Source of the DNA: an uncultured Candidatus Saccharibacteria bacterium | Lineage (GTDB): Bacteria > Patescibacteriota > Minisyncoccia > Phycocordibacterales > GWA1-40-21 | Assembly: GCA_964605355.1 (NCBI GenBank) | Contig: CAZSCE010000002.1 | Location: 1-62,659 of the forward strand | Direction of reading: 5' to 3' | Length of the DNA: 62,659 nucleotides | Part shown: positions 3,695-61,511 of the stretch, in pieces | Position numbering within the stretch: the first letter of the stretch is position 1 | Layout: each line of letters begins with the position of its first letter | Notes under the pieces: generated by a model | Seen by the model: the letters and a program-made list of their open reading frames with translations, nothing else | Database searches by the model: none | Told to the model about the DNA's origin: nothing | Made by a program: the position numbers and the translations under genes

Positions 3695-4333
3695 ATGTAT
3701 AAATTTAAATATCTAATTGGCATAGATGAAGTGGGGAGGGGGCCTTTGGCCGGGCCGGTGGCGGTGTGCGCGCTGTGTATTTGCCAAAATAAAAATTTAA
3801 ATAATAAAACCAAGTTCGCAGGTGCGAACTTCAGAAATTTTAAAGATTCAAAAAAGCTTTCACATAATCAGCGGGTGGAATGGCTAGAGAAAATAAATTT
3901 GGAAAAGAAAAAAGGAAATATTTTATATAAAGTAAGTTTTGAGTCTAATAAAATTATCGATAAGAAAGGCCTGACTTTTGCTATAAAAAATGCTTTAGGA
4001 AAGTCTCTCAATTCCTTAAACCTGTCTGCGCAGGCAGGAATTAATTCTAAAGAATGTCTAGTACTTTTAGATGGGGGATTGAGGGCACCAGCAGAATATA
4101 CAAATCAAAAAACTATAACAAAAGGGGATGAAAAGGAATTGGCTATTGCGCTGGCCTCTATTGTGGCCAAGGTGACCAGGGATGACTTGATGGTAAAGCT
4201 AGCCCTAAAATACCCAGGCTATGGCCTGGAAAAGCATAAAGGTTATGGCACCAGGGATCACTATAAGGCTATAAAAAGTCAGGGTATTTCGGCTATTCAT
4301 AGAAAGAGTTTTTTAAAAGGCCATATAAAGTAA
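3695..4333 (+). CDS. rnhB: Ribonuclease HII
   Basis: IGIDEVGRGPLAGPV, DSKKLS, ASIVAKVTRD and GYG motifs. Confidence 0.9.
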   Translation: MYKFKYLIGIDEVGRGPLAGPVAVCALCICQNKNLNNKTKFAGANFRNFKDSKKLSHNQRVEWLEKINLEKKKGNILYKVSFESNKIIDKKGLTFAIKNALGKSLNSLNLSAQAGINSKECLVLLDGGLRAPAEYTNQKTITKGDEKELAIALASIVAKVTRDDLMVKLALKYPGYGLEKHKGYGTRDHYKAIKSQGISAIHRKSFLKGHIK

Positions 4334-4451: not shown

Positions 4452-4949
4452 GTGCATAATCATTATGCTGGGGTGTTCGTGTTTGACCCGCGGGATGGGT
4501 ATGTGTTGGTTGTCTCAGATTCCAAACATGAAAAGGAGCTGAAGATGGCGGGCGGAACATCTTTTGAGGGTGAGGAACCCGAAGATACTGCCACACGCGA
4601 GGCGACGGAGGAGTTGCGGACCAAGATACTTGAAAGTATCTTGGTGCACACAGAGTCCGTGCCCAACAGAGATGGGAGTACACATATGAGGTACTTCTTT
4701 CTCGCCACCAAGATTTCCAGTGCTCTTGAAAAAGGGGCCACCTGGGAAGTGGAAGAGAAGGATCCAACTGGGCGCGTGGTTGAAAAACTGATTGCCCAAT
4801 GGGTCCCGATCCGGGTCCTAGCGAGCCGGTTGTTCTTCAAACAGCGCCCGGCTTTTGGTGCTGTTCTGGCCGAGTTGGCTAAAAATGAGCAGTTCTTTAA
4901 CAAGTATGAAGATTTGCTCAGTGCGTTTCCCGCACCAGAAGTTGTCTGA
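4452..4949 (+). CDS. Cassette B: stand-alone Nudix-family hydrolase-like protein
   Basis: GTG start with GGAGG 7 nt upstream. Near-canonical Nudix box GTSFEGEEPEDTATREATEELR (Gx5Ex7REAxEE). G/C-rich codon usage. Confidence 0.7.
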   Translation: MHNHYAGVFVFDPRDGYVLVVSDSKHEKELKMAGGTSFEGEEPEDTATREATEELRTKILESILVHTESVPNRDGSTHMRYFFLATKISSALEKGATWEVEEKDPTGRVVEKLIAQWVPIRVLASRLFFKQRPAFGAVLAELAKNEQFFNKYEDLLSAFPAPEVV

Positions 4950-5341: not shown

Positions 5342-6253
5342 ATGGCCAATAGACACATTGCAAGATCAATAGTTCTTCAAACACTTTTCGAACTTGATTT
5401 TCGGGATTATTCTAAATTAGAGAATCCTGAGGAAATTTTAGTGCGGAACGCTGCTGAATTTGCTAATGATGTGGTTGACCTCTTCTTTGTTAGAACTTTG
5501 CTGACCGGTGTGATGGGCAAAAAGAATGAAATTGATTTAGTTATTCAAAAAGCTGCTCCGGATTGGCCGTTAGATAAAATCTCTACTATTGATAGAAATA
5601 TTTTACGCATTGGGCTTTATGAGCTTCTCTTTGCTGATTCCAAAGAAGTGCCCGCCAAGGTGGCTATTAATGAAGCCATAGAGCTTTCTAAAAGTTATGG
5701 TGGTGAGAAAAGCAGTAAATTTGTGAATGGAGTATTAGGCTCAGTTTATAAAGAACTTGGTGAGCCGGATAAAGATGCTGTTTCCAAAAAGAAAAATAAA
5801 ACTATTATGGATATTCCGTATGAGCAAATGCCTATTGAAAAGCTGGGTGGCGCGGTGGTGTATGCTTATGATAACGGTGATTATTATTTAGCCTTGGTTC
5901 ATGACGTGTTTGGCTATTGGACATTATCAAAGGGTGGTTTAGAGGGTACTGAAAAAGAGCAGGAGGGAACCAAAAGAGAAGTAAAAGAAGAGATCGGTTT
6001 GGATGTAGAAGTGCTGGATGAGATAGGACGTAATGAATATGTGGCTAACCATCCGGAAAAAGGTAAAATCCGCAAGCAGGTTATTTATTTCCTTGCCAAA
6101 GCCCCATATAAAGATTTAATTTTAGAAAAAGATAATGGCGGTTTGGATGAAGCACGCTGGTTTAAACTAACCGAGCTTGAAGATCTGAAAACCTATGGAG
6201 ATATCCTGCCTTTTATTACCAAGGCAATAAGCTTGATTTGTGAACAAAAATAG
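5342..6253 (+). CDS. nusB: NusB antitermination factor fused to a C-terminal Nudix hydrolase domain
   Basis: N-terminal about 140 aa is NusB-like (ARSIVLQTLFELDF, DRNILRIGLYELLF, AINEAIELSKSYGGEKSSKFVNGVLG). The C-terminal half carries a perfect Nudix box, GGLEGTEKEQEGTKREVKEEIGL. Confidence 0.8.
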   Translation: MANRHIARSIVLQTLFELDFRDYSKLENPEEILVRNAAEFANDVVDLFFVRTLLTGVMGKKNEIDLVIQKAAPDWPLDKISTIDRNILRIGLYELLFADSKEVPAKVAINEAIELSKSYGGEKSSKFVNGVLGSVYKELGEPDKDAVSKKKNKTIMDIPYEQMPIEKLGGAVVYAYDNGDYYLALVHDVFGYWTLSKGGLEGTEKEQEGTKREVKEEIGLDVEVLDEIGRNEYVANHPEKGKIRKQVIYFLAKAPYKDLILEKDNGGLDEARWFKLTELEDLKTYGDILPFITKAISLICEQK

Positions 6254-6267
6254 TTAATATAGACTAT

Positions 6268-6972
6268 ATGACAAAGAAAACAGGTCCAGATTTTAGTAAA
6301 TTTGAAGAGGCCTCTGGTATTACTTTTAAGAATAAAGAGCTACTTCGTCGGGCCTTTACGCACCGCTCATTTTTAAATGAAAACCGTGGAGCAGAGTCTT
6401 CACATAATGAACGCTTGGAATTTTTAGGTGATGCTGTCTTGGAGCTGACCGTGACAGAGTATTTATTTGAAAAATATCCAGATAGTACGGAGGGTGACCT
6501 CACTGCTTACCGTGCGGCTCTGGTAAACGCTATCACCTTGTCAGAAGTGGCCCAGAAAATAAATGTAAATGATTTCCTCCTGCTTTCTAAAGGTGAGTCA
6601 AAAGATACCGGCAAGGCGCGTCAATATATTTTAGCTAATACCATGGAGGCCATAATTGGCGCTATGTATTTGGACCAAGGTTATGACGGTGCAAAATATT
6701 TTATTTCTAAAAACTTATTTCATTTGATTGATAAAATTGTGGAGGATAAAAGCTGGATTGATGCCAAGAGTAAGTTTCAGGAAAAAGCCCAGGAAAAAGA
6801 AAGCACCACGCCGGTTTACAAGAGTTTGAAAGAAGAAGGCCCGGATCATGACAAACGCTTTACTATTGGTGTGTATTTAAATGATGAACTAATTACCGAG
6901 GGTGAGGGAATGTCCAAGCAGGAGGCCGAGCAAGTAGCCGCCCGCAAAGCCCTGGAAGTAAAGGGCTGGTAA
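6268..6972 (+). CDS. rnc: Ribonuclease III
   Basis: NERLEFLGDAVLEL signature plus a C-terminal dsRBD (SKQEAEQVAARKAL). Confidence 0.9.
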   Translation: MTKKTGPDFSKFEEASGITFKNKELLRRAFTHRSFLNENRGAESSHNERLEFLGDAVLELTVTEYLFEKYPDSTEGDLTAYRAALVNAITLSEVAQKINVNDFLLLSKGESKDTGKARQYILANTMEAIIGAMYLDQGYDGAKYFISKNLFHLIDKIVEDKSWIDAKSKFQEKAQEKESTTPVYKSLKEEGPDHDKRFTIGVYLNDELITEGEGMSKQEAEQVAARKALEVKGW

Positions 6973-53988: not shown

Positions 53989-55269
53989 TTAATTCTTAAT
54001 TGGTAAATTGGCCGGTGGCTCAGATTTTTTAGAAGCAATTTTTGTCAGAGTAGGTGTAGCAGAAACATTACCTGGGAAGTGAAATATAGTGGCCAGTTCT
54101 TCTGTATTCAAAATAAAAGGATCCTGTTTATAATGCTGATACGGTGGATAAAAGAATGAACGTAAGCGGTAAGCATTATACATTTCAACTGTTTTCTTTT
54201 CCTTTTTTCTCGCAATAATCGGTTTTAAAAAAGGAAACAGGGTGGCCCAATCCTTAAAATTATCTGAGACATCAGTCCAGATCTTCATTTTCAAGCCATT
54301 TAGGGTATTTGAGTTATATTGACGCATGGCACCGATATAGCCAGAAATATATGCGGGATTAAACACCTCCTTTTCAGCTAAGTAAAAACCCCGAATCATG
54401 GTATAAAAGGCCATTTTACCGTAACTACGCTCAATGGCATTTATGGTCTCTATTTGCCCTTTTGTTGGGTTAGGAAAACCTGGAAATTCTCCCCCGCGAT
54501 CAACAGTTGCTTCCTCTCTAATTTTTTTAATTTCTTCTTCAGCGGCCTCCTTCCAATTAGGCTTTTCATGTAACCGGTGTTCCTTTAAACCTTCCGGGGC
54601 ATGCATTTTAACCAAAATTTGCATCCAGATTTGCTGACCTTTAGTGGCTGAGCCTAAATATTCTAACACCGCGGTCATCGGATCTATTCTATACTCATCC
54701 TTTTGATCCTTATCCATGGCGTAATCAACGTAGGTTTTAATAGGGTAAACATCATCTTTCATTAATTTAAACTGCAAACCCCAAATAATATGCTTTAAGG
54801 GGTTATAATTAAACTGACGAACGTAATCTTTCTCAGGTGGCACCTCGTATATTTCCACTGTAGGATATTGAGCATAAATTTGTGCTTCAAGGATTTTCTT
54901 AAATTTTGGTTCTGATGACCAAATATAAAAATGAATCTGGCCTTCAATAGAAGCTAACTCAAGTGAAAACCAACCACGAACCTTACCGTCAATATAAGCC
55001 TCAGTATATGTAGCAGCTCCGCTGGCTTGCATGGCTCCAAATATAATTTCCATGGCTAATGGAGATTTAACAATGTCCTTGGGAATTTTAATTTCAAATA
55101 AAAAAGACTTTAACTTTGAAATATATTTTAGCTGAATAGAACGAACATACAATAAAACAGCAATATAAATTAGGATAAATGGAAGAACGATGGGGGAAAT
55201 CACAAACAATATCTTATAAATAAGAGGTAATATTTCCGTATTGAATTTTATAAGAAGCTCGAGGAACAT
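53989..55269 (-). CDS. Membrane-anchored hypothetical protein (426 aa)
   Basis: N-terminal hydrophobic hairpin and a large soluble domain. No family recognised. Confidence 0.55.
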   Translation of the reverse strand: MFLELLIKFNTEILPLIYKILFVISPIVLPFILIYIAVLLYVRSIQLKYISKLKSFLFEIKIPKDIVKSPLAMEIIFGAMQASGAATYTEAYIDGKVRGWFSLELASIEGQIHFYIWSSEPKFKKILEAQIYAQYPTVEIYEVPPEKDYVRQFNYNPLKHIIWGLQFKLMKDDVYPIKTYVDYAMDKDQKDEYRIDPMTAVLEYLGSATKGQQIWMQILVKMHAPEGLKEHRLHEKPNWKEAAEEEIKKIREEATVDRGGEFPGFPNPTKGQIETINAIERSYGKMAFYTMIRGFYLAEKEVFNPAYISGYIGAMRQYNSNTLNGLKMKIWTDVSDNFKDWATLFPFLKPIIARKKEKKTVEMYNAYRLRSFFYPPYQHYKQDPFILNTEELATIFHFPGNVSATPTLTKIASKKSEPPANLPIKN

Positions 55270-55302
55270 GTGATATATTTTATCACACTCTTACTTTCTT
55301 GC

Positions 55303-55332
55303 CAAACAAAAAACCCCTTTCGGGGCCAGTTT
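55303..55332 (-). terminator. Probable intrinsic terminator after the 55341 gene
   Basis: On the minus strand: CCCC-GAAA-GGGG followed by UUUUUUGUUU, extended by A/U pairs. Confidence 0.5.
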
Positions 55333-55340
55333 GTTTTGTA

Positions 55341-56375
55341 TTATTTTACAATCTCGTATTTTCCCTCTTTGTTCTTCTTAAAGTATTTTGGATTTTGGAG
55401 GTTGATGACAATGGTATTTTCCTTTACATATCTCTCTTTTAACACCTTGGCTATAACATCAGCCTTGGTCAGTGGACCATTCTTTTCAATGATTTTCTTG
55501 ATCACATCCTTGACTACACCACTCATATAACCCCATTCAGAAAGGGCATATAATCCCCTACCAACAAGGACAAAACGAGGGTCTTTGATTAATTCATTAT
55601 GGGTAGTAGCTACGTGGGCCTTGATTTTAAAGACGTCAGTAATAATTTTAGCTACTTCTCTGAAGTGGATTGGGGAACCGTGCCTTCTGATAATCAAATA
55701 AGCATAGTCACGCATACCTTTAGTGCTAATATTTGAAGACTCTGTTTTGCCCCACTCACCCAAGGTATTTTTACCAATTTTCTTAGAAAGAGATAACCAA
55801 CGTTTAGCAATTTCCTCATTTTTAAATTTCTCAGACACATCTTCTAGGTGATCCAAAAAAGACTTGATGATATCCGGTTCTGAAAGTAAGTCCTCACTTT
55901 TCAATGTGGCATATAACTTTCTCAAGGCCTCGTGAACTTTTTCAGATAAATTTGAGTCAATTAACCAACGGTGTTTAAAATCATCATCTTCCTTTATTTT
56001 GGTAAAGGGATGACCAACAACCAATAGAAAGTTAACATGACTTTGGATTGAAGCATCAGAAGAAACAAAATCTAATAGATCCTGCTCAACCACTATTCCG
56101 CCCAAGGAGTGTATAACTTTTTCTATTTCATCAAAAACAGGTTTAGCATCAAAATATTGCTTGGATTTCCTAATTATAGCCAGGGCGTGGTTCTCAATTT
56201 GTCTGACACGCTCACGAGTAATACCATAGGTTTTGCCAATAGCATCTAGGGTCATAGGCTCGGCATCCTTGCCTAAACCGTATCTCTTGGTCATTACATC
56301 ACGTGATCTCTCACCCAATGCGGCAATTAGTCCCTTGCTGGCCTGTTTTGGTTTAAAATTTATAATTGTTGACAT
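55341..56375 (-). CDS. Sigma-70 region-4-like HTH protein with C-terminal HARE-HTH domain
   Basis: N-terminus MTLDAIGKTYGITRERVRQIENHALAIIRK equals a sigma region 4.2 HTH. C-terminus DYAYLIIRRHGSPIHFREVAKII...LVGRGLYALSEWGY matches the HARE-HTH pattern. Confidence 0.65.
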   Translation of the reverse strand: MSTIINFKPKQASKGLIAALGERSRDVMTKRYGLGKDAEPMTLDAIGKTYGITRERVRQIENHALAIIRKSKQYFDAKPVFDEIEKVIHSLGGIVVEQDLLDFVSSDASIQSHVNFLLVVGHPFTKIKEDDDFKHRWLIDSNLSEKVHEALRKLYATLKSEDLLSEPDIIKSFLDHLEDVSEKFKNEEIAKRWLSLSKKIGKNTLGEWGKTESSNISTKGMRDYAYLIIRRHGSPIHFREVAKIITDVFKIKAHVATTHNELIKDPRFVLVGRGLYALSEWGYMSGVVKDVIKKIIEKNGPLTKADVIAKVLKERYVKENTIVINLQNPKYFKKNKEGKYEIVK

Positions 56376-56419
56376 AAATGTTAATTACCTGTTTTGACTA
56401 ATAATAATGTCTTGGGCCT

Positions 56420-56448
56420 AGTATAGCACCCTTCTTATTTTAAGTCAA
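56420..56448 (-). promoter_or_regulatory. Backbone sigma70-type promoter for the 55341-56375 gene
   Basis: On the minus strand: TTGACT (56448-56443), 17 nt, TATACT (56425-56420). Confidence 0.5.
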
Positions 56449-56451
56449 ACC

Positions 56452-59346
56452 CTAAAGAGTATTGATGATTAGTATTTTTCCCTTAACAAACATTTTACTT
56501 TTTATAGTTTTTCCATCAGTCCATTTCCTGACCTCTGGTAGAGCCAGGGCAATTTCTTCCACTTTTTTCTGGTCTACTCCGGCTGGGGCTTTAAAGTTTG
56601 CTCTTGGTTTTCCATCAATCTGAACCACCACAGTTATTTCCTCGGAAGCAATTTTACTCTCATCAAACTCCGGCCATTTCTCTAGATGAATAGATTTCTT
56701 ATTACCAATGTTTGCCCAAATTTCTTCTGTTATGTGTGGAGCAAAAGGAGCCAGTAATTTAAGGATAATTTCATAATCTGCCTTAGTTAACTCTGACTTT
56801 TCTGCCAAATTAATCAGAATCATAAAAGCGGAAATGGCCGTGTTGAAATTAAAATTCAAAATGTCATCTGTAACTTTCTTTACAGTCTTATTAAGCAAGA
56901 TTTCAAAATTTTCTTTATCAACCTCCCTCAATCCCCCCTTATCCAATGGGGGAAGGTGAGAAGAAATTTTATCCTGCAATTTCCAAACTTTATCCAAAAA
57001 TCTTCTGGATCCCACCATATTATCTGTACTCCAAGCAATTTCCTGGTCAAAAGGTCCCATAAACATTTCGTAAACACGTAAAGTATCTGCCCCCACATTT
57101 TTAACTACATCATCCGGATTTACTACATTACCCCAACGCTTGCTCATCTTGCGTCCGTCAGAACCCAGGATCATACCAAGGCTACGGAGCTTCATAAATG
57201 GTTCCTGATTACTAACCACGCCAATATCAAATAAAAACTTATGCCAAAAACGGGCGTAAATAAGGTGCCTGGTATTATGCTCACCACCACCAACGTATAA
57301 ATCTACCGGTGACCAATACTTTTCCTTTTTCTTATCTACTAATGCTTTCTTGTTTTTTGGATCAATATATCGCAAATAATACCAGGAAGAACCAGCCCAT
57401 TGAGGCATGGTGTTTGTTTCTCTTTTACCCTTACCGCCACATTTAGGGCACTTTACATTTACCCATTTAGTAATTGCCGCCAAAGGTGATTCACCCGTCC
57501 CGGTTGGCTCATAAAACTTCACCTTTGGTAACATTACTGGTAAATCCTTTTCTGGTACACCCACCACCCCGCACTTATCACAGTGAATAAGCGGAATGGG
57601 CTCGCCCCAATAACGCTGTCTAGAAAATACCCAATCTTTTAATTTATAAGTAACCTTTTGTACACCATCAGCCGCATCAGTAATCTTCACCTTTGCCTCC
57701 TCACTATCCATACCATCAAACTCCCCAGAATTAATTAAAATTCCATTACCAATAAAACAATCGGATTCAGATTTATATACCTGCCACATATGTTTAAAGG
57801 CTTCAAGATTAATCCAGCTCTCCATTTTGTCAGCCTCAATCCAGACGGCCTTATGATTTTTTGTATCTTCTTCAGAAACCGCAACCTGCTCGTCATCGAT
57901 TAATTCAAAAAACATTCCTTGCCCTATGCCATATCTATTTTCATCCTTATGGGCGGCAAAAAAATGATTATGCTGTTCACCCCCTAAATTTTTTATGAAT
58001 TTAACATTAATATAACCAGTTTCTTCACGGATCTCTCTTATTGCTGCATCCTTAAAGTCCTCACCTTCATCAAGGCCGCCAATTATCCCGGAATGCCAGC
58101 CGAACTTCTCCCAATCTAAGCACAAGAACTTATTTGTCTTCTTATTCAAGACTAATGCATAAGCAGTAATCCTTTTGACAGTTTTTTTATCAGCACGAAC
58201 TTTATCAGAATCATTTTCAGGTTTTGTAAAATAGGGAGCAATAACCTGCTTGATTGGTAAATTATATTTCTTGGCAAAAGCAAAATCACGCTCATCATGT
58301 GCCGGGACGGCCATCACAGCACCAGTACCATAATTATTTAAAACATAATCCGCAATATAAACTGGCAAGATTTCCTTGGTTAGTGGATGTTTAATTTCTA
58401 CTCCCTCAAGTTTGATTCCTGTTTTTTCTTTATTCTCTGCAGTGCGCTCTATTTCTGTCTTTGCCTTTATGGTCTCACGATATTTTTCTACCTCACTCCA
58501 ATTTTTAATCTGTGATTTTAATATATCTACCAATTTATTTTCCGGTGCTAACACCACATAAGTCACACCCATAAAAGTATCTGCCCGAGTAGTGAAAACG
58601 CGAATTTTCTCCTCAGAATTTTTTATATTAAACCATAATTCCGAACCTTCAGAACGGCCAATCCAGTTTCTCTGGACTTCTTTTACATTTTCCGGCCAAT
58701 CACTTAGTGTATCCAGATCATTTAATAAACGATCAGCGTATTTAGTAATAGCAATCACCCACTGGCGTAAGGGTTTCTTTTCAACCAAGGTGCCACAGCG
58801 TTCACAGTTTGGTCCATCTAAATCTTCATTAGCTAAACCAGTTTTACATGATGGACACCAATTAATAGGCTCATTACTTTCATAAGTAAGACCCTTTTTA
58901 AACATCTGTAAAAAACACCACTGCGTCCATTTATAGTAATTTGGATCCGTAGTATTTACTTCTCGTGACCAGTCATAGTTAAAACCTAAAATACTTGTTT
59001 GCTCCTTATAAATTTTTACATTTTTTACCGTCTGATCAATAGGGTTTGTTTTATTCTTAATAGCATAATTTTCAGCTGGTAAACCAAAAGCGTCCCAGCC
59101 CATAGGGTGAAGCACATTAAAACCATGCATTTTTTTATACCTAGAATAGACATCGGTAGCTACAAAGCCTCTAGGGTGCCCTACATGCAAACCCGCACCA
59201 GAAGGATACGGAAACATATCCAGAATATAAAACTTTTTACCTTTAGTGGTATCTTTTGTTTTATTTATTCCCTTTTTTTCCCAAACCTTCCGCCACTTTG
59301 GCTCAATTTTTAAATGATTATAATCAGCAATTTTTTTATTTTTCAT
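56452..59346 (-). CDS. leuS: Leucine--tRNA ligase carrying an inserted Nudix domain
   Basis: HVGHPRG (HIGH), CP1 editing motifs FTTRADTFMGVTY and GTGAVMAVPAHDERD, and KMSKR (KMSKS). A roughly 160-aa insert (aa 372-530) carries the Nudix box GGLDEGEDFKDAAIREIREETGY. Confidence 0.9.
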   Translation of the reverse strand: MKNKKIADYNHLKIEPKWRKVWEKKGINKTKDTTKGKKFYILDMFPYPSGAGLHVGHPRGFVATDVYSRYKKMHGFNVLHPMGWDAFGLPAENYAIKNKTNPIDQTVKNVKIYKEQTSILGFNYDWSREVNTTDPNYYKWTQWCFLQMFKKGLTYESNEPINWCPSCKTGLANEDLDGPNCERCGTLVEKKPLRQWVIAITKYADRLLNDLDTLSDWPENVKEVQRNWIGRSEGSELWFNIKNSEEKIRVFTTRADTFMGVTYVVLAPENKLVDILKSQIKNWSEVEKYRETIKAKTEIERTAENKEKTGIKLEGVEIKHPLTKEILPVYIADYVLNNYGTGAVMAVPAHDERDFAFAKKYNLPIKQVIAPYFTKPENDSDKVRADKKTVKRITAYALVLNKKTNKFLCLDWEKFGWHSGIIGGLDEGEDFKDAAIREIREETGYINVKFIKNLGGEQHNHFFAAHKDENRYGIGQGMFFELIDDEQVAVSEEDTKNHKAVWIEADKMESWINLEAFKHMWQVYKSESDCFIGNGILINSGEFDGMDSEEAKVKITDAADGVQKVTYKLKDWVFSRQRYWGEPIPLIHCDKCGVVGVPEKDLPVMLPKVKFYEPTGTGESPLAAITKWVNVKCPKCGGKGKRETNTMPQWAGSSWYYLRYIDPKNKKALVDKKKEKYWSPVDLYVGGGEHNTRHLIYARFWHKFLFDIGVVSNQEPFMKLRSLGMILGSDGRKMSKRWGNVVNPDDVVKNVGADTLRVYEMFMGPFDQEIAWSTDNMVGSRRFLDKVWKLQDKISSHLPPLDKGGLREVDKENFEILLNKTVKKVTDDILNFNFNTAISAFMILINLAEKSELTKADYEIILKLLAPFAPHITEEIWANIGNKKSIHLEKWPEFDESKIASEEITVVVQIDGKPRANFKAPAGVDQKKVEEIALALPEVRKWTDGKTIKSKMFVKGKILIINTL

Positions 59347-59362
59347 ACTTCTATCTTACATT

Positions 59363-59395
59363 AAAAAACGCCACCAAGCAAAGGCGGCGTTTCTT
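59363..59395 (-). terminator. Intrinsic terminator after the 59411 gene
   Basis: On the minus strand: AACGCCGCC-loop-GGTGGCGTT followed by TTTTT. Confidence 0.75.
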
Positions 59396-59410
59396 ATAAC
59401 ATAACCTAAT

Positions 59411-60337
59411 CTATACGCCGGGCATGACATTTATCGGTACATTTTCCTCACCGGCCGTCCTTTCAAAACACGCTCGGCCCACACCGTGATTCCAGATGTC
59501 TGGATTAGAAATATAAACAAGACTCAAGTAACCTTCCAAAGAAAACGTGGCACAAATTTTATATGTATTTAGTGAGGAAATATTGTATTCGTAATCCATC
59601 TTTGTCTCAGGATCCTTAATACTGGAAACATAGTAAGTGGTCCCCTGCGTCAAAATATTGAGGCTTGAGGGGAGTATATTATTTGCACGGTAATAATCTG
59701 TCACGGCGTATTGAATACTTGATAAATCATTGACCCTTTGCTGATCAAATCTGATACTTCTCTGTTTTGCTGGTGAGCCAATAGCCATTACTCCAGTAAT
59801 AATTACACCCAGGATTACTAAACAAACAACATAGGCAATATATTTTCTTTTTGGTGTTGGTAAGGTGACATCCCGGCGAAGTTCATATAAGTAAAAACGA
59901 AAGATAGAAAAGGCCACAATAAACATAACCAAAACCTTTAATAAAAACCTTAAAGTTAAATCATCTCCGCCAATAAATCTGTAAACTAGGGTGGAAAGAT
60001 CTACGGCAATAGCTAAGCCGGTTATAAAAAGAGTTAGAAAAAAGAACCAGCGTCTGACCCATAAATCTTTCTTTTCGGGATTAAGAGCTACCGCCTTGGT
60101 ACTAATCCTAGACAAGTAAATATAGGCGGGAAAAAAGATAATAAGCGCCGCCAGCCCAACTCGAATACTATCAGCAGAAAAATCCATACCATTATATGCG
60201 GTGATATCAGGTAACCATTTATTTATTAAATCAAAGGCCACACTGACAAAACTAAATGTGCTAACATATAATCCAATAATTATGCCAAAATAAATAAAAA
60301 AATCTGCGGCCGTTGTTCTTGATTTTGATGGATCCAT
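59411..60337 (-). CDS. DUF5671-like multi-pass membrane protein with C-terminal pilin-like globular domain
   Basis: N-terminal helices (AADFFIYFGIIIGLYV...). C-terminal RFDQQRVNDLSSIQYAVTDYYRANNILPSSL resembles the conserved segment of type IV pilin/pseudopilin domains. Confidence 0.55.
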   Translation of the reverse strand: MDPSKSRTTAADFFIYFGIIIGLYVSTFSFVSVAFDLINKWLPDITAYNGMDFSADSIRVGLAALIIFFPAYIYLSRISTKAVALNPEKKDLWVRRWFFFLTLFITGLAIAVDLSTLVYRFIGGDDLTLRFLLKVLVMFIVAFSIFRFYLYELRRDVTLPTPKRKYIAYVVCLVILGVIITGVMAIGSPAKQRSIRFDQQRVNDLSSIQYAVTDYYRANNILPSSLNILTQGTTYYVSSIKDPETKMDYEYNISSLNTYKICATFSLEGYLSLVYISNPDIWNHGVGRACFERTAGEENVPINVMPGV

Positions 60338-60357
60338 ATATAATTTTGCGAAATTAT

Positions 60358-60385
60358 GTCGCGCAATCGTCCATTAAAGCGCGAC
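60358..60385. other. GC-rich hairpin in an AT-rich intergenic gap
   Basis: GTCGCGC, a 14-nt loop, GCGCGAC. No adjacent U-run. Lies between ychF and the 60337 gene start. Confidence 0.3.
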
Positions 60386-60413
60386 GCTCGAAATAAATCT
60401 AATAAGACCTTAA

Positions 60414-61511
60414 TTATATCTTAAATTCTATAGTATCACCATCTTTGACAATATATTCTTTACCCTCAGTTTTTACCCAACCTTTTTCCCGAGCAGTGCC
60501 ATATGAGCCGGCCTCTATCAGTTTTTGCCAAGGAATAACCTCGGCTCGCACAAATTTTTCCTTAAAATCAGCATGAATAGCAGTTCCAGCCTCTGGCGCG
60601 GTTGCACCCCTTTTTATAGTCCAGGCCCTAGTTTCGTCTTCTCCAGTGGTTAGATACGTCATAAGCCCTAAAAGGTCATATCCAGCCTTAATTAGGTCAT
60701 TTATACCATCATCTTTGACCCCTAGACCCTCACGCATCTCCTGTTTATCTGCCCCCTCCATTTCCTTCAGCTCATTCTCAATCCCGGCGTCCACAATCAC
60801 ATATTTAGAATTTGTCTCCTTAAAAAAACTTAAAAGATTAGTATAACGCTCATCCTTTATTTCATCTAGATTTTTTCCGCCAGATTTTTTATTCAACACA
60901 TATAAAATTGGCTTCATGGTTAAAAGGCAAAGTTTTTTAGCTTCTACAATTTCAAATTCATCCAGGCTAGCTACCTGAGCTAATTTCCCCGCTTCTAAAC
61001 AATCTTTTATTTTAGTCAAAGCCGAATTTTCTATCACCGCCACCTTGCTACCTTTTTTTATTTCACTAACTAGGCTCTGCAGACGCTTAGAAACACTTTG
61101 CATATCAGCTAAAATTAATTCTAGATTAATGGTTTCAATATCTGACAGTGGTTCCACTTTATTAGCCACGTGAATAATATTATCATCTTCAAAAACTCTA
61201 ATCACTTCAGCGATGGCGTCCGTCTCCCTAATATTTGTTAAAAATTTATTACCCAGGCCTTCACCAGCAGAAGCCCCTTTTACCAAACCAGCAATATCCA
61301 CAAATTCTACCGCGGCCGGAATAGTTTTAGCAGAATTAGAGAAACGGCTCAACGCGTTAAGCCGTTCATCCGGCACCGCCACCACCCCTACAGACGGATC
61401 AATGGTACAAAATGGGTAATTCTCACACGGCACCGCTTTTTTGGTCAGCGCGTTAAATAAGGTGCTTTTCCCCACGTTTGGTAGCCCCACAATTCCGATT
61501 GATAATGACAT
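60414..61511 (-). CDS. ychF: Ribosome-binding ATPase YchF
   Basis: GIVGLPNVGKSTLFNALT P-loop, DIAGLVKGAS and a C-terminal TGS/YchF domain (WTIKRGATAPEAGTAIHADF). Confidence 0.92.
   Translation of the reverse strand: MSLSIGIVGLPNVGKSTLFNALTKKAVPCENYPFCTIDPSVGVVAVPDERLNALSRFSNSAKTIPAAVEFVDIAGLVKGASAGEGLGNKFLTNIRETDAIAEVIRVFEDDNIIHVANKVEPLSDIETINLELILADMQSVSKRLQSLVSEIKKGSKVAVIENSALTKIKDCLEAGKLAQVASLDEFEIVEAKKLCLLTMKPILYVLNKKSGGKNLDEIKDERYTNLLSFFKETNSKYVIVDAGIENELKEMEGADKQEMREGLGVKDDGINDLIKAGYDLLGLMTYLTTGEDETRAWTIKRGATAPEAGTAIHADFKEKFVRAEVIPWQKLIEAGSYGTAREKGWVKTEGKEYIVKDGDTIEFKI

Follow-up and report, generated by a model that had tools for sequence, protein, structure and literature searches.

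The leuS gene in the window (the whole 62,659-nt stretch of DNA analysed here) raises the question of why a leucyl-tRNA synthetase (LeuRS) should carry a Nudix hydrolase domain within its CP1 editing domain, and what that domain might do there. Aminoacyl-tRNA synthetases (aaRSs) are among the best-studied enzymes and the CP1 domain of LeuRS is a drug target, and we are not aware of any solved or described LeuRS in which CP1 harbours a nested enzyme domain. A Nudix domain inside the CP1 of an otherwise complete LeuRS had been proposed in an earlier note made from the sequence, and this proposal held. The gene was found to be organised as follows.

56452..59346, minus strand: leuS, complete bacterial-type LeuRS with insert, a single ORF of 964 aa
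59176..59187, minus strand: HIGH motif (HVGH, aa 54-57) of the synthetic site, from a motif scan
58237..58671, minus strand: part of the CP1 editing domain N-terminal to the insert, aa ~226-370, from Pfam tRNA-synt_1_2
58576-58593, minus strand: threonine-rich TTRADT of CP1, aa 252-257, from a motif scan
aa 340, minus strand: GTGAVM, a CP1 editing motif, from a motif scan
58285-58302, minus strand: AHDERD, CP1 editing motif (AHDxRD type, with the universally conserved Asp), aa 349-354
57763..58236, minus strand: nested Nudix hydrolase domain, subtype A, aa 371-528 (~158 aa), from alignments, Pfam and AF2
58012..58080, minus strand: Nudix box GGLDEGEDFKDAAIREIREETGY, aa 423-445, a strict match to GX5EX7REUXEEXGU
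57934..57948, minus strand: subfamily signature K467-x-x-N470-R471, within the loop that follows the Nudix box, from conservation
57622..57762, minus strand: part of CP1 C-terminal to the insert, aa 529-~575, leading back to the catalytic core, from the Thermus alignment
57136..57150, minus strand: KMSKS-type loop, KMSKR, aa 733-737, from a motif scan

The host protein bore out its description as otherwise complete, with the HIGH, KMSK and CP1 motifs intact and the whole LeuRS scoring as an equivalog of NCBIfam TIGR00396 (leuS_bact; 999.7 bits against a cut-off of 548.4). Pfam identified tRNA-synt_1, the editing domain tRNA-synt_1_2 (aa 226-379, E 1.3e-64), Anticodon_1 and NUDIX (PF00293), and the HIGH motif was kept in 119/119 homologues. 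The LeuRS of T. thermophilus and E. coli were the top PDB sequence matches (E 2.5e-212), and an AF2 model of the full protein (pLDDT 88.9, pTM 0.79) returned LeuRS structures alone in Foldseek (TM 0.77-0.82). With the bacterial enzymes (T. thermophilus 1H3N/2BYT, E. coli 4AQ7) the window protein shares the class Ia core, the HIGH/KMSKS and CP1 motifs and the anticodon-binding and C-terminal domains; it differs from Thermus LeuRS in having the ~158-aa Nudix domain at a 16-aa hairpin and in missing the leucine-specific domain that precedes the KMSKS loop (Thermus aa 580-637). The window LeuRS thus looks, from its sequence, to be a working enzyme, with the synthetic, editing, anticodon-binding and C-terminal parts all intact.

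When aligned with T. thermophilus LeuRS, residues 8-370 of the window protein corresponded to Tth 3-363 and residues 534-728 to Tth 380-579, so that 163 window residues face 16 in the Thermus enzyme (pairwise alignment). The earlier note had given 30-35 residues for the usual gap, which is too many given the 16 of Thermus, but the large insertion that it described is real and its coordinates, 57757-58233, were correct, the gene lying on the minus strand and the plus-strand translation being full of stops. The boundaries at aa 371-528 were set by comparison with an insert-free sister LeuRS (L089), which reads ...KEVIS-GGNISEK-AYTGDGILINS where the window LeuRS reads ...KQVIA-[PYFT...KSESD]-CFIGNGILINS; in an insert-free sister this site spans 7-12 aa. 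The insert leaves CP1 from a beta-hairpin whose strands were placed at aa 369-374 and 535-537 in the model, and as modelled it is a complete Nudix-fold domain nested at the tip of that hairpin, in a loop on the surface of CP1.

The identity of the insert was established by several lines of evidence. The Pfam NUDIX match covered aa 392-508 (E 1.7e-10, 41.4 bits against a gathering threshold of 21.1), the canonical Nudix box noted earlier at nt 58012-58080 proved to be a strict match to GX5EX7REUXEEXGU, and the insert domain alone was modelled by AF2 with a pLDDT of 94.1. Foldseek with this model gave a probability of 1.00 and TM scores of 0.65-0.80 to solved Nudix hydrolases, with their alpha/beta/alpha fold; a close match was the A. 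aeolicus Ap4A hydrolase (3i7u, TMt 0.80, rmsd 2.8), and further neighbours included the T. thermophilus Ap6A hydrolase Ndx1, the C. elegans and human Ap4A hydrolases, M. smegmatis MutT1, NudI and NudB. The segment is not a LeuRS-specific domain lacking a Nudix fold, as it both matches Pfam NUDIX and superposes, as an AF2 model, on solved Nudix hydrolases.

Across 193 LeuRS domains at site 370, the catalytic glutamates were nearly invariant (E438 99%, E441 97%, E442 100%), as were other residues of the box (G423 98%, E429 88%, R437 92%), with G424 conserved within the same 92-98% range as G423 and R437. The subfamily has a signature of its own, comprising R392, W412, W417, K467-x-x-N470-R471, H498 and W502, in which K467 (95%), N470 (95%) and R471 (93%) were invariant or nearly so in two subfamily alignments. 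Between the window LeuRS and L009, pN was 0.148 for the insert and 0.151 for the host, with pS of ~0.76. These data show that the catalytic residues of the insert are intact and that purifying selection acts on them as it does on the host protein. The LeuRS therefore has a third, autonomous active site, that of a predicted Mg2+-dependent pyrophosphohydrolase.

An artefactual origin, by a frameshift or misassembly fusing a Nudix gene into leuS, is scarcely credible. The ORF is continuous, both junctions are conserved across many independent assemblies, the AF2 pLDDT is 90-94 across both junctions, and independent NCBI, JGI, ENA and Logan assemblies all contain the same LeuRS-Nudix architecture, at 59-80% identity. 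Nothing was found in favour of an artefact; one related scaffold, L001, contains an N-gap and shifts of frame, yet these lie upstream of the junction. An intein was also rejected, as the junctions (...VIA/PYF... and ...SESD/CFIGNG...) are without the Cys/Ser and His-Asn-Cys/Ser/Thr termini of inteins and the Nudix fold accounts for the entire insert. The insert showed neither a homing-endonuclease nor a transposase signal, its protein junctions had no flanking repeats, and its GC of 0.37 did not deviate from the 0.36 and 0.39 of the flanks.

The window LeuRS is one of a large, Patescibacteria-wide set carrying one to three Nudix domains of a single subfamily; hundreds of related synthetases carry the same module, and no record of the exact window LeuRS was present in the contig index. 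The subfamily is mostly LeuRS-borne (108/148 best representative clusters), and of 149 full-length LeuRS, 99 had one such domain, 17 had two and 11 had three. The nested domains occupy two LeuRS loops and fall into subtypes A, B and C, with the same subtypes at both loops, and the nested subfamily is retained across Paceibacteria and Gracilibacteria. In a few subgroups (for example P0168 and P0177) the box is degraded, REUxEE being replaced by MEISEE or AEIFEE. Other enzymatic domains were seen as well: at other loops, some Nudix-bearing LeuRS also carry Ham1p_like/ITPase (P0010, E 1e-59), HAD_2 or Ser_hydrolase (alpha/beta-hydrolase) inserts. IleRS was observed to carry His_Phos_1. The LeuRS of the earlier note is thus a single member of a large and labile phenomenon of multi-domain insertion.

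The lability of the insert was apparent when host and insert identities were compared. In one pair of LeuRS (P0259 and P0244) the hosts are 88% identical and the 100-aa flanks 87%, with inserts of 28% identity, and over 7260 pairs host and insert identity were barely correlated (Spearman 0.23). A single ancient insertion followed by vertical descent was rejected because of these discordant identities. Mapped onto a host tree of 149 leaves, the insert was gained or lost at least 16 times and its subtype switched about 62 times; within subtype A, insert and host co-diverge. The Nudix cassette has thus been repeatedly lost, gained or swapped. Close relatives lack the insert, and no subfamily copy was present within 2-8 kb of the insert-free leuS in L089, L090 and L091. 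The insert is therefore dispensable for LeuRS function, since there are close relatives without it and with no copy within 8 kb. The proposition that an insert-free leuS always has a free copy adjacent was discarded, as it holds in 1/3 of the insert-free lineages examined (L095 and L096).

The subfamily is also linked to other aaRS genes. ProRS with the same Nudix subfamily nested within it were found (P0047 and P0271-P0274), and aaRS genes adjoin 4/6 of the free-standing subfamily members examined. One of these (P0080) precedes an insert-free leuS by 2 nt and shares the synteny of the window; another (P0029) is separated by 2 nt from a downstream leuS that has the insert too; a third (P0041) follows argS after 13 nt and is itself followed by ileS; and a fourth (P0042) lies upstream of a ProRS-Nudix gene. 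A further free-standing member (P0022) follows Fpg/MutM after 4 nt, an arrangement seen on three contigs. A search of metagenome contigs with P0080 found no relatives.

Two other Nudix modules are encoded in the window, and the earlier count of three in 62 kb, two with RNA-handling fusion partners, was correct.

5342-6253: NusB + NUDIX fusion, its Nudix domain confirmed
4452-4949: free-standing Nudix ORF, its Nudix domain confirmed

A shared origin of the three modules was rejected: on the subfamily HMM the LeuRS insert scored 199 bits and the NusB-Nudix domain and free-standing ORF scored 26 and 16 bits respectively, from which it follows that the three are not close relatives.

Homology did not assign a substrate to the insert. 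The NCBIfam RppH/ApnA (PRK00714-type) models scored 20-25 bits over the Nudix box alone, against cut-offs of 116-118, and the insert reached no NCBIfam sequence model of a characterised Nudix family. Matches in PDB profile searches were generic and specificities among Foldseek neighbours were mixed: the insert is 22% identical or less to PDB Nudix proteins, and its neighbours cover Ap4A, Ap6A, 8-oxo-dGTP, NTP, ADPR and DHNTP specificities. MutT fared no better than the other specificities (1mut E 1.2e-3 by profile search; MutT1 TM ~0.6), and the sole support for a MutT-type context within the subfamily is the free-standing member beside Fpg. Substrate specificity in Nudix enzymes is usually set by the X-loop, which follows the Nudix box; in ApnA hydrolases a Tyr of this loop stacks on the adenine of the substrate (PMC5389931). 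In this family an aromatic residue lies 17 aa downstream of the box (position 462 is F in 60% and Y in 35%), and the window insert has F462 and F463, not the canonical Tyr, so that an equivalence in position to that Tyr is tentative.

The reading that we favour, tentatively and at a little under an even chance, is that the nested Nudix domain is an autonomous, active pyrophosphohydrolase and a partner of aaRSs that probably clears by-products of the Ap4A type or other nucleoside polyphosphates. The Nudix module would be a functional partner of the synthetase, not part of leucine proofreading, and would most likely hydrolyse Ap4A, Ap3A and Ap4N, with a close nucleoside-polyphosphate substrate also possible. 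Synthetases make such ApnN by reaction of the aminoacyl-adenylate with ATP or another NTP, and hydrolysis would yield AMP and NTP or NDP, released where the ApnN is made. Whether by nesting or as a translationally coupled separate gene, one hydrolase per synthetase would thereby be assured in little-regulated genomes. Most Ap3-5N comes from aaRSs, which transfer the adenylate to acceptor nucleotides (review PMC7705103). Of the possible targets named in the earlier note (Ap4A, adenylates and RNA 5' ends), Ap4A is plausible as an aaRS-linked substrate because of the genomic association with several aaRS genes. A point against this is that ArgRS, encoded next to one free copy, is not known to make Ap4A. 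Hydrolysis of the aminoacyl-adenylate itself by a Nudix enzyme is chemically unlikely.

A rather unlikely, though possible, alternative is that the insert is a house-cleaning passenger, an active MutT/NTP-pyrophosphatase-type sanitiser chemically unrelated to aminoacylation, for which LeuRS would be a permissive carrier: LeuRS is essential and constitutively expressed, its loops are tolerant, and genes and promoters would be saved in streamlined genomes. The nesting of Ham1p_like/ITPase (P0010), HAD_2 and Ser_hydrolase in the same LeuRS proteins is consistent with this, as are IleRS with His_Phos_1, P0022 beside Fpg/MutM on three contigs, the NusB-Nudix fusion and the other Nudix ORF in the same window, the existence of insert-free sister LeuRS, and structural neighbours that include MutT1, NudI and NudB. 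A passenger would, however, leave unexplained the concentration of the subfamily in LeuRS (108/148 best clusters), its recurrence in ProRS and the free copies beside leuS, proS and argS, and fusion alternating with adjacent genes is a classical mark of functional partnership. A selfish or neutral exchangeable cassette, spreading via leuS recombination or neighbouring Nudix genes through the tolerance of the loop and without benefit to LeuRS, is improbable. It would fit the weak correlation of host and insert identity (Spearman 0.23), the 28% identity of the P0259/P0244 inserts within 88% identical hosts, the changes on the 149-leaf host tree (at least 16 in presence/absence and about 62 in subtype) and the occurrence of the same subtypes at two different loops. 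Against it stand the nearly invariant catalytic residues, a pN for the insert equal to that of the host, the lack of intein termini, homing-endonuclease/transposase signal, flanking repeats or GC deviation, and retention in Paceibacteria and Gracilibacteria, which argues for a benefit.

A non-catalytic role is more doubtful still. Here the insert would be a tRNA- or protein-binding surface, or a nucleotide sensor, modulating the movement of CP1 between aminoacylation and editing conformations. The insert does sit in the mobile CP1 domain, the boxes of a few subgroups (P0168, P0177) are degraded, and small CP1 insertions in other LeuRS affect tRNA binding, which we counted in favour of such a role; the conservation of E438/E441/E442 at 97-100% and of G423/G424/R437 at 92-98% over 193 domains is, in contrast, typical of active Nudix hydrolases. 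The favoured reading, of an active hydrolase partnering aaRSs, may be part of a broader one that we regard as speculative and hold with low confidence: that aaRSs in ultra-small symbionts (Patescibacteria and, for ProRS, probably DPANN) are platforms for exchangeable hydrolase cassettes (Nudix in one to three copies, Ham1, HAD, alpha/beta-hydrolase and His-phosphatase), integrated with aminoacylation. On such a platform the nested Nudix domain would break down, in cis, Ap4N or other by-products that derive from the adenylate. Alternatively, it would link the activity of the synthetase to the level of nucleotides or alarmones. In either case it would be maintained by cassette swaps between leuS alleles and adjacent free-standing genes.

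Known systems offer partial likenesses. With free-standing Nudix enzymes (3I7U, Ndx1 1VC8, E. faecalis 2AZW and MutT1) the insert shares the fold, the box and the presence of an aromatic residue in the downstream loop; it differs in being 22% identical or less, in its own signature and in being nested in another enzyme. In NadM-Nudix, an NMN adenylyltransferase is fused to an ADP-ribose pyrophosphatase (PMC7824862), and here too an enzyme of the HIGH-motif nucleotidyltransferase superfamily forms an adenylylated product and the Nudix domain acts on a related nucleotide. NadM-Nudix differs in being an end-to-end fusion of another Nudix subfamily to another host enzyme, and its model PRK05379 was a weak NCBIfam match to the window LeuRS. 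The NCBIfam exception model NF040702 (IleRS with an N-acetyltransferase) is likewise an aaRS with a second, unrelated enzymatic domain; the window-type domain differs in being nested in CP1, present in up to three copies and exchangeable. NCBIfam r20 held no curated model for LeuRS with Nudix, full-text literature searches found no paper describing the combination, and the main review of the Nudix clan makes no mention of tRNA or synthetases (PMC5389931).

The LeuRS-Nudix architecture is common in a major bacterial radiation and evolutionarily dynamic. The link between alarmones and synthetases has long been discussed and, to our knowledge, has never been seen as a physical fusion; if the Nudix domain acts on synthetase by-products, Ap4A-type alarmone turnover would be tied to its source. 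Were aaRSs indeed platforms for exchangeable hydrolases, nucleotide quality control or signalling would have a level, linked to translation, that has so far gone unrecognised. Even if the domain were only a passenger, this would still be a striking natural case of an essential enzyme in which domains are nested repeatedly and exchangeably, and such a case is useful to protein engineering and to understanding the streamlining of CPR/DPANN genomes.

The window's leuS was found to be one uninterrupted open reading frame in a stretch of conserved synteny (53989-61511, minus strand; YchF, DUF5671, leuS, Sigma70_r4/HARE-HTH, DUF8128-like), with a Nudix domain nested in it:

60414-61511, minus strand: YchF
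59411-60337, minus strand: DUF5671 membrane protein
56452-59346, minus strand: leuS, 964 aa
57763-58236, minus strand: nested Nudix insert, aa 371-528
58012-58080, minus strand: Nudix box within leuS, strict match GGLDEGEDFKDAAIREIREETGY
55341-56375, minus strand: Sigma70_r4/HARE-HTH protein
53989-55269, minus strand: DUF8128-like protein

The earlier note had placed both the insert and its Nudix box correctly; the ORF is on the minus strand, and plus-strand translation of the note's insert coordinates gave many stops, so that reading must have used the reverse strand. Pfam assigned three LeuRS domains and a NUDIX domain (PF00293, aa 392-508; E 1.7e-10, 41.4 bits against a cut-off of 21.1), placing the insert in the Nudix superfamily, and the host scored as a bacterial LeuRS with 999.7 bits against the NCBIfam equivalog (cut-off 548.4). 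The motifs HVGH (aa 54), TTRADT (252), GTGAVM (340), AHDERD (349) and KMSK (733) were all found, bearing out the claim of an otherwise complete enzyme. Alignment to T. thermophilus LeuRS paired window residues 8-370 with Thermus 3-363 and 534-728 with 380-579, so that 163 residues stand in place of a 16-residue hairpin loop within CP1; the length that the note gave for the ordinary loop (30-35 residues) was too high, immaterially. Comparison of the junction in L089, an insert-free sister enzyme about 80% identical (KEVIS-GGNISEK-AYTGDGILINS), with that of the window (KQVIA-[PYFT...KSESD]-CFIGNGILINS) bounded the insert at aa 371-528. The leucine-specific domain (Thermus 580-637) was missing from the window enzyme, which seems to be a trait of the whole clade, as insert-free sisters are only ~800-830 aa long. 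A five-residue linker, GSDGR, lies ahead of KMSKR (57136-57165, minus strand; LeuRS aa ~728-737).

AlphaFold2, with 78 homologues, modelled the full-length protein at pLDDT 88.9 and pTM 0.79, with blocks across the insert and both junctions at pLDDT 90-96. The host part matched LeuRS structures only, and in the model the insert leaves it from between strand aa 369-374 and strand aa 535-537, as nested domains classically do. Modelled alone (pLDDT 94.1), the insert superposed, at probability 1.00 and with no identity above 22%, on Nudix hydrolases of solved structure, namely E. faecalis 2AZW (TMt 0.78), A. aeolicus Ap4A hydrolase 3I7U (TMt 0.80, rmsd 2.8 Å), NudI, AtNUDT7, T. thermophilus Ap6A hydrolase Ndx1, M. 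smegmatis MutT1 and the C. elegans and human Ap4A hydrolases; with the Pfam match, this disposes of a LeuRS-specific segment of non-Nudix fold. Assembly error was excluded, as the ORF is uninterrupted and the same architecture was seen again, at 59-80% identity, in NCBI, JGI, ENA and Logan assemblies. Intein-type termini were sought at the insert ends and none were found; the GC content of the insert was 0.37 against 0.36 and 0.39 in the flanks (38% for the window). At the related locus L001 (957-1499, plus strand) the LeuRS frame stops directly after the Nudix domain (…QYMWKD, then stop), 7 nt from the contig end and downstream of an N-gap with frame changes, which could be a contig-end error or a truly split leuS.

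Three Nudix modules lie in the window, two of them fused to RNA-handling proteins, as previously counted; besides the LeuRS insert, the region concerned holds:

3695-4333: RNase HII
4452-4949, plus strand: free-standing Nudix ORF, 165 aa, Pfam 41.5 bits, relaxed box GTSFEGEEPEDTATREATEE, overlapping mechanical minus-strand ORFs
5342-6253, plus strand: NusB (aa 6-137) with C-terminal Nudix (aa 183-283)
6268-6972, plus strand: RNase III, directly downstream of NusB-Nudix

Against the HMM of the LeuRS-insert subfamily NusB-Nudix scored 26 bits, as only distant kin, and the free-standing ORF was rejected as a member at 16 bits. ARAGORN found no tRNA or tmRNA genes across the 62.7-kb window (1-62659).

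The LeuRS-Nudix of the window belongs to a widespread phenomenon. Searched exhaustively by HMMER with only the insert as query, 1.84 billion representatives yielded 369 clusters at E ≤ 1e-3 (191 at E ≤ 1e-10), the best 148 of which comprised 108 LeuRS or LeuRS fragments, 28 small proteins (≤210 aa) and 12 others. The nearest LeuRS homologues carry the name Candidatus Paceibacterota, and full-length matches in GTDB genomes were confined to Patescibacteria MAGs, including Gracilibacteria-type genomes needing code 25, in which loci L024 and L025 have the Nudix at exactly the window's host position. Insertion hot spots in 149 full-length LeuRS mapped to host HMM positions ~209 (29 proteins), 235 (7), 371, the window's site (125), 434 (10) and ~480 (12), with no Nudix domain in 22 proteins, one in 99, two in 17 and three in 11. 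Other nested domains were Ser_hydrolase (alpha/beta fold), HAD_2 and, in the 1330-aa LeuRS P0010, a Ham1p_like/ITPase (RdgB-like; aa ~972-1180, Pfam E 1e-59). P0010 also carries (aa ~622-760) a possibly ASCH-like module of ~135 aa that Pfam does not recognise (LNFY..DVW...G.KT.ETRALNPEEK..FGD.KVGD) and that recurs in P0188, P0206, P0013 and P0027; another LeuRS, P0205, extends to 1558 aa.

The cassette is labile and can be exchanged. The insert is absent from some 21-25 LeuRS closely related to the window's (75-81% identical across the host part), which are intermixed with insert-bearing ones on the host tree; this requires at least 16 presence/absence changes, a count to be read as an order of magnitude on a rough NJ tree. 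Of the three main Nudix subtypes, A, the window's (40 domains), occurred at site 370 only, and B (56) and C (75) at both loops; in triple-Nudix LeuRS the first loop holds C and B as a tandem pair, the second an A-like domain. Identity of host and insert was nearly uncorrelated (Spearman 0.23, 7260 pairs), with inserts 29-80% identical to the window's in hosts ~80% identical to it, and between P0259 and P0244 the host was 88% identical, the 100 residues either side 87% and the insert 28%. In subtype A, divergence of host and insert goes in step (0.77/0.75, 0.61/0.54, 0.51/0.53). The history is thus one of vertical descent, interrupted by loss and replacement of the cassette.

The link between this subfamily and aminoacyl-tRNA synthetase genes is not confined to LeuRS. 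A small archaeal-type ProRS family (P0047, P0271-P0274; loci L092, L093, L094) has the same Nudix nested between its anticodon-binding and C-terminal domains, and as the closest relatives without the insert, at 78-80% identity, bear the names Nanoarchaeota or Woesearchaeota, its hosts are probably DPANN archaea, which suggests that the association recurs there. Truly free-standing members (160-185 aa) also exist, and genomic context was examined for six: P0080 precedes by 2 nt a leuS without the insert, within the window's synteny (YchF - DUF5671 - ... - Nudix - leuS), and P0029 precedes by 2 nt a leuS that does bear it; P0041 follows argS by 13 nt and precedes an ileS with a His_Phos_1 insert; P0042 is upstream of a ProRS-Nudix; P0022 adjoins Fpg/MutM and P0066 another Nudix gene. 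The window's gene order was also found in L089, L091, L095 and the JGI contig of P0029, and in some genomes the slot directly upstream of leuS holds a free-standing Nudix gene. When a fusion alternates with a neighbouring gene in translational coupling, this is the classical mark of a functional partnership; at two further insert-free leuS loci no subfamily copy was found within 2-8 kb, so the partnership is facultative. At locus L005 (6094-9648, plus strand) a 1184-aa IleRS has His_Phos_1 nested at aa 523-675 (E 1.4e-30), and its 10-kb surroundings hold ArgRS, four Nudix genes, thymidylate kinase, a zeta-toxin-like kinase and dUTPase.

LeuRS-Nudix is thus real and widespread, and undescribed in the literature and databases searched: full-text searches brought up no account of a Nudix domain in LeuRS or in any other aaRS, the words "tRNA" and "synthetase" are both absent from the Nudix clan review (PMC5389931), and the database label is simply leucine--tRNA ligase. 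The nearest precedents are the end-to-end fusion NadM-Nudix and an aaRS with an accessory enzyme domain, IleRS with GNAT, which is curated in NCBIfam; unlike LeuRS-Nudix, neither is nested, multi-copy and exchangeable in CP1.

Across 193 site-370 Nudix domains, conservation was high at G423 and G424 (98% each), E429 (88%; Q 7%), R437 (92%), E438 (99%), E441 (97%), E442 (100%) and G444 (95%), and the subfamily has its own signature (R392, W412, W417, K467-x-x-N470-R471, H498, W502); such conservation of the catalytic residues speaks against a purely structural role. When the window was compared with L009, a locus of the same subtype, insert and host showed non-synonymous divergence of 0.148 and 0.151 respectively, with synonymous sites saturated (about 0.76), and such purifying selection, equal on both, likewise disfavours a purely selfish cassette. 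Selection acts on the nested domain as an enzyme, and the LeuRS editing and synthetic motifs are kept in nearly all homologues. In P0168, P0177 and relatives (Nudix cluster 2) the site-370 box is partly degraded (E429 to Q, R437 to M/A; for example GGIEQGQTPKEAALMEISEEAAL) with E438, E441 and E442 retained, and these domains may have a changed activity or none.

Ap3-5N compounds have one of their principal sinks in Nudix enzymes, and the sole chemistry common to LeuRS, ProRS, ArgRS and IleRS is that of ATP and adenylates. The synthetases are the principal makers of Ap3-5N, ATP or another NTP attacking the aminoacyl-adenylate (PMC7705103); several ApnA hydrolases are among the insert's structural neighbours, and the subfamily has an aromatic residue, more often Phe than Tyr, at the putative downstream X-loop position, where ApnA hydrolases have a stacking Tyr (PMC5389931). 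These points favour hydrolysis of Ap4A-type compounds, proposed tentatively, as the insert scored 20-25 bits against ApnA/RppH models with cut-offs of 116-118. Hydrolysis of misactivated aminoacyl-adenylates is unlikely, since these are acyl-phosphate anhydrides and not diphosphates. The main rival, a generic house-cleaning passenger, fits the co-nested Ham1, HAD and alpha/beta-hydrolase domains, the MutM neighbour of a free-standing member and the dispensability of the insert, and we consider it somewhat less likely. The window LeuRS is shown to retain intact synthetic and editing sites beside a predicted third, autonomous Nudix active site, which, on the Ap4A-type reading that we cautiously prefer, would hydrolyse adenylylated nucleotides of this kind, or a closely related nucleoside polyphosphate, where they are synthesised.
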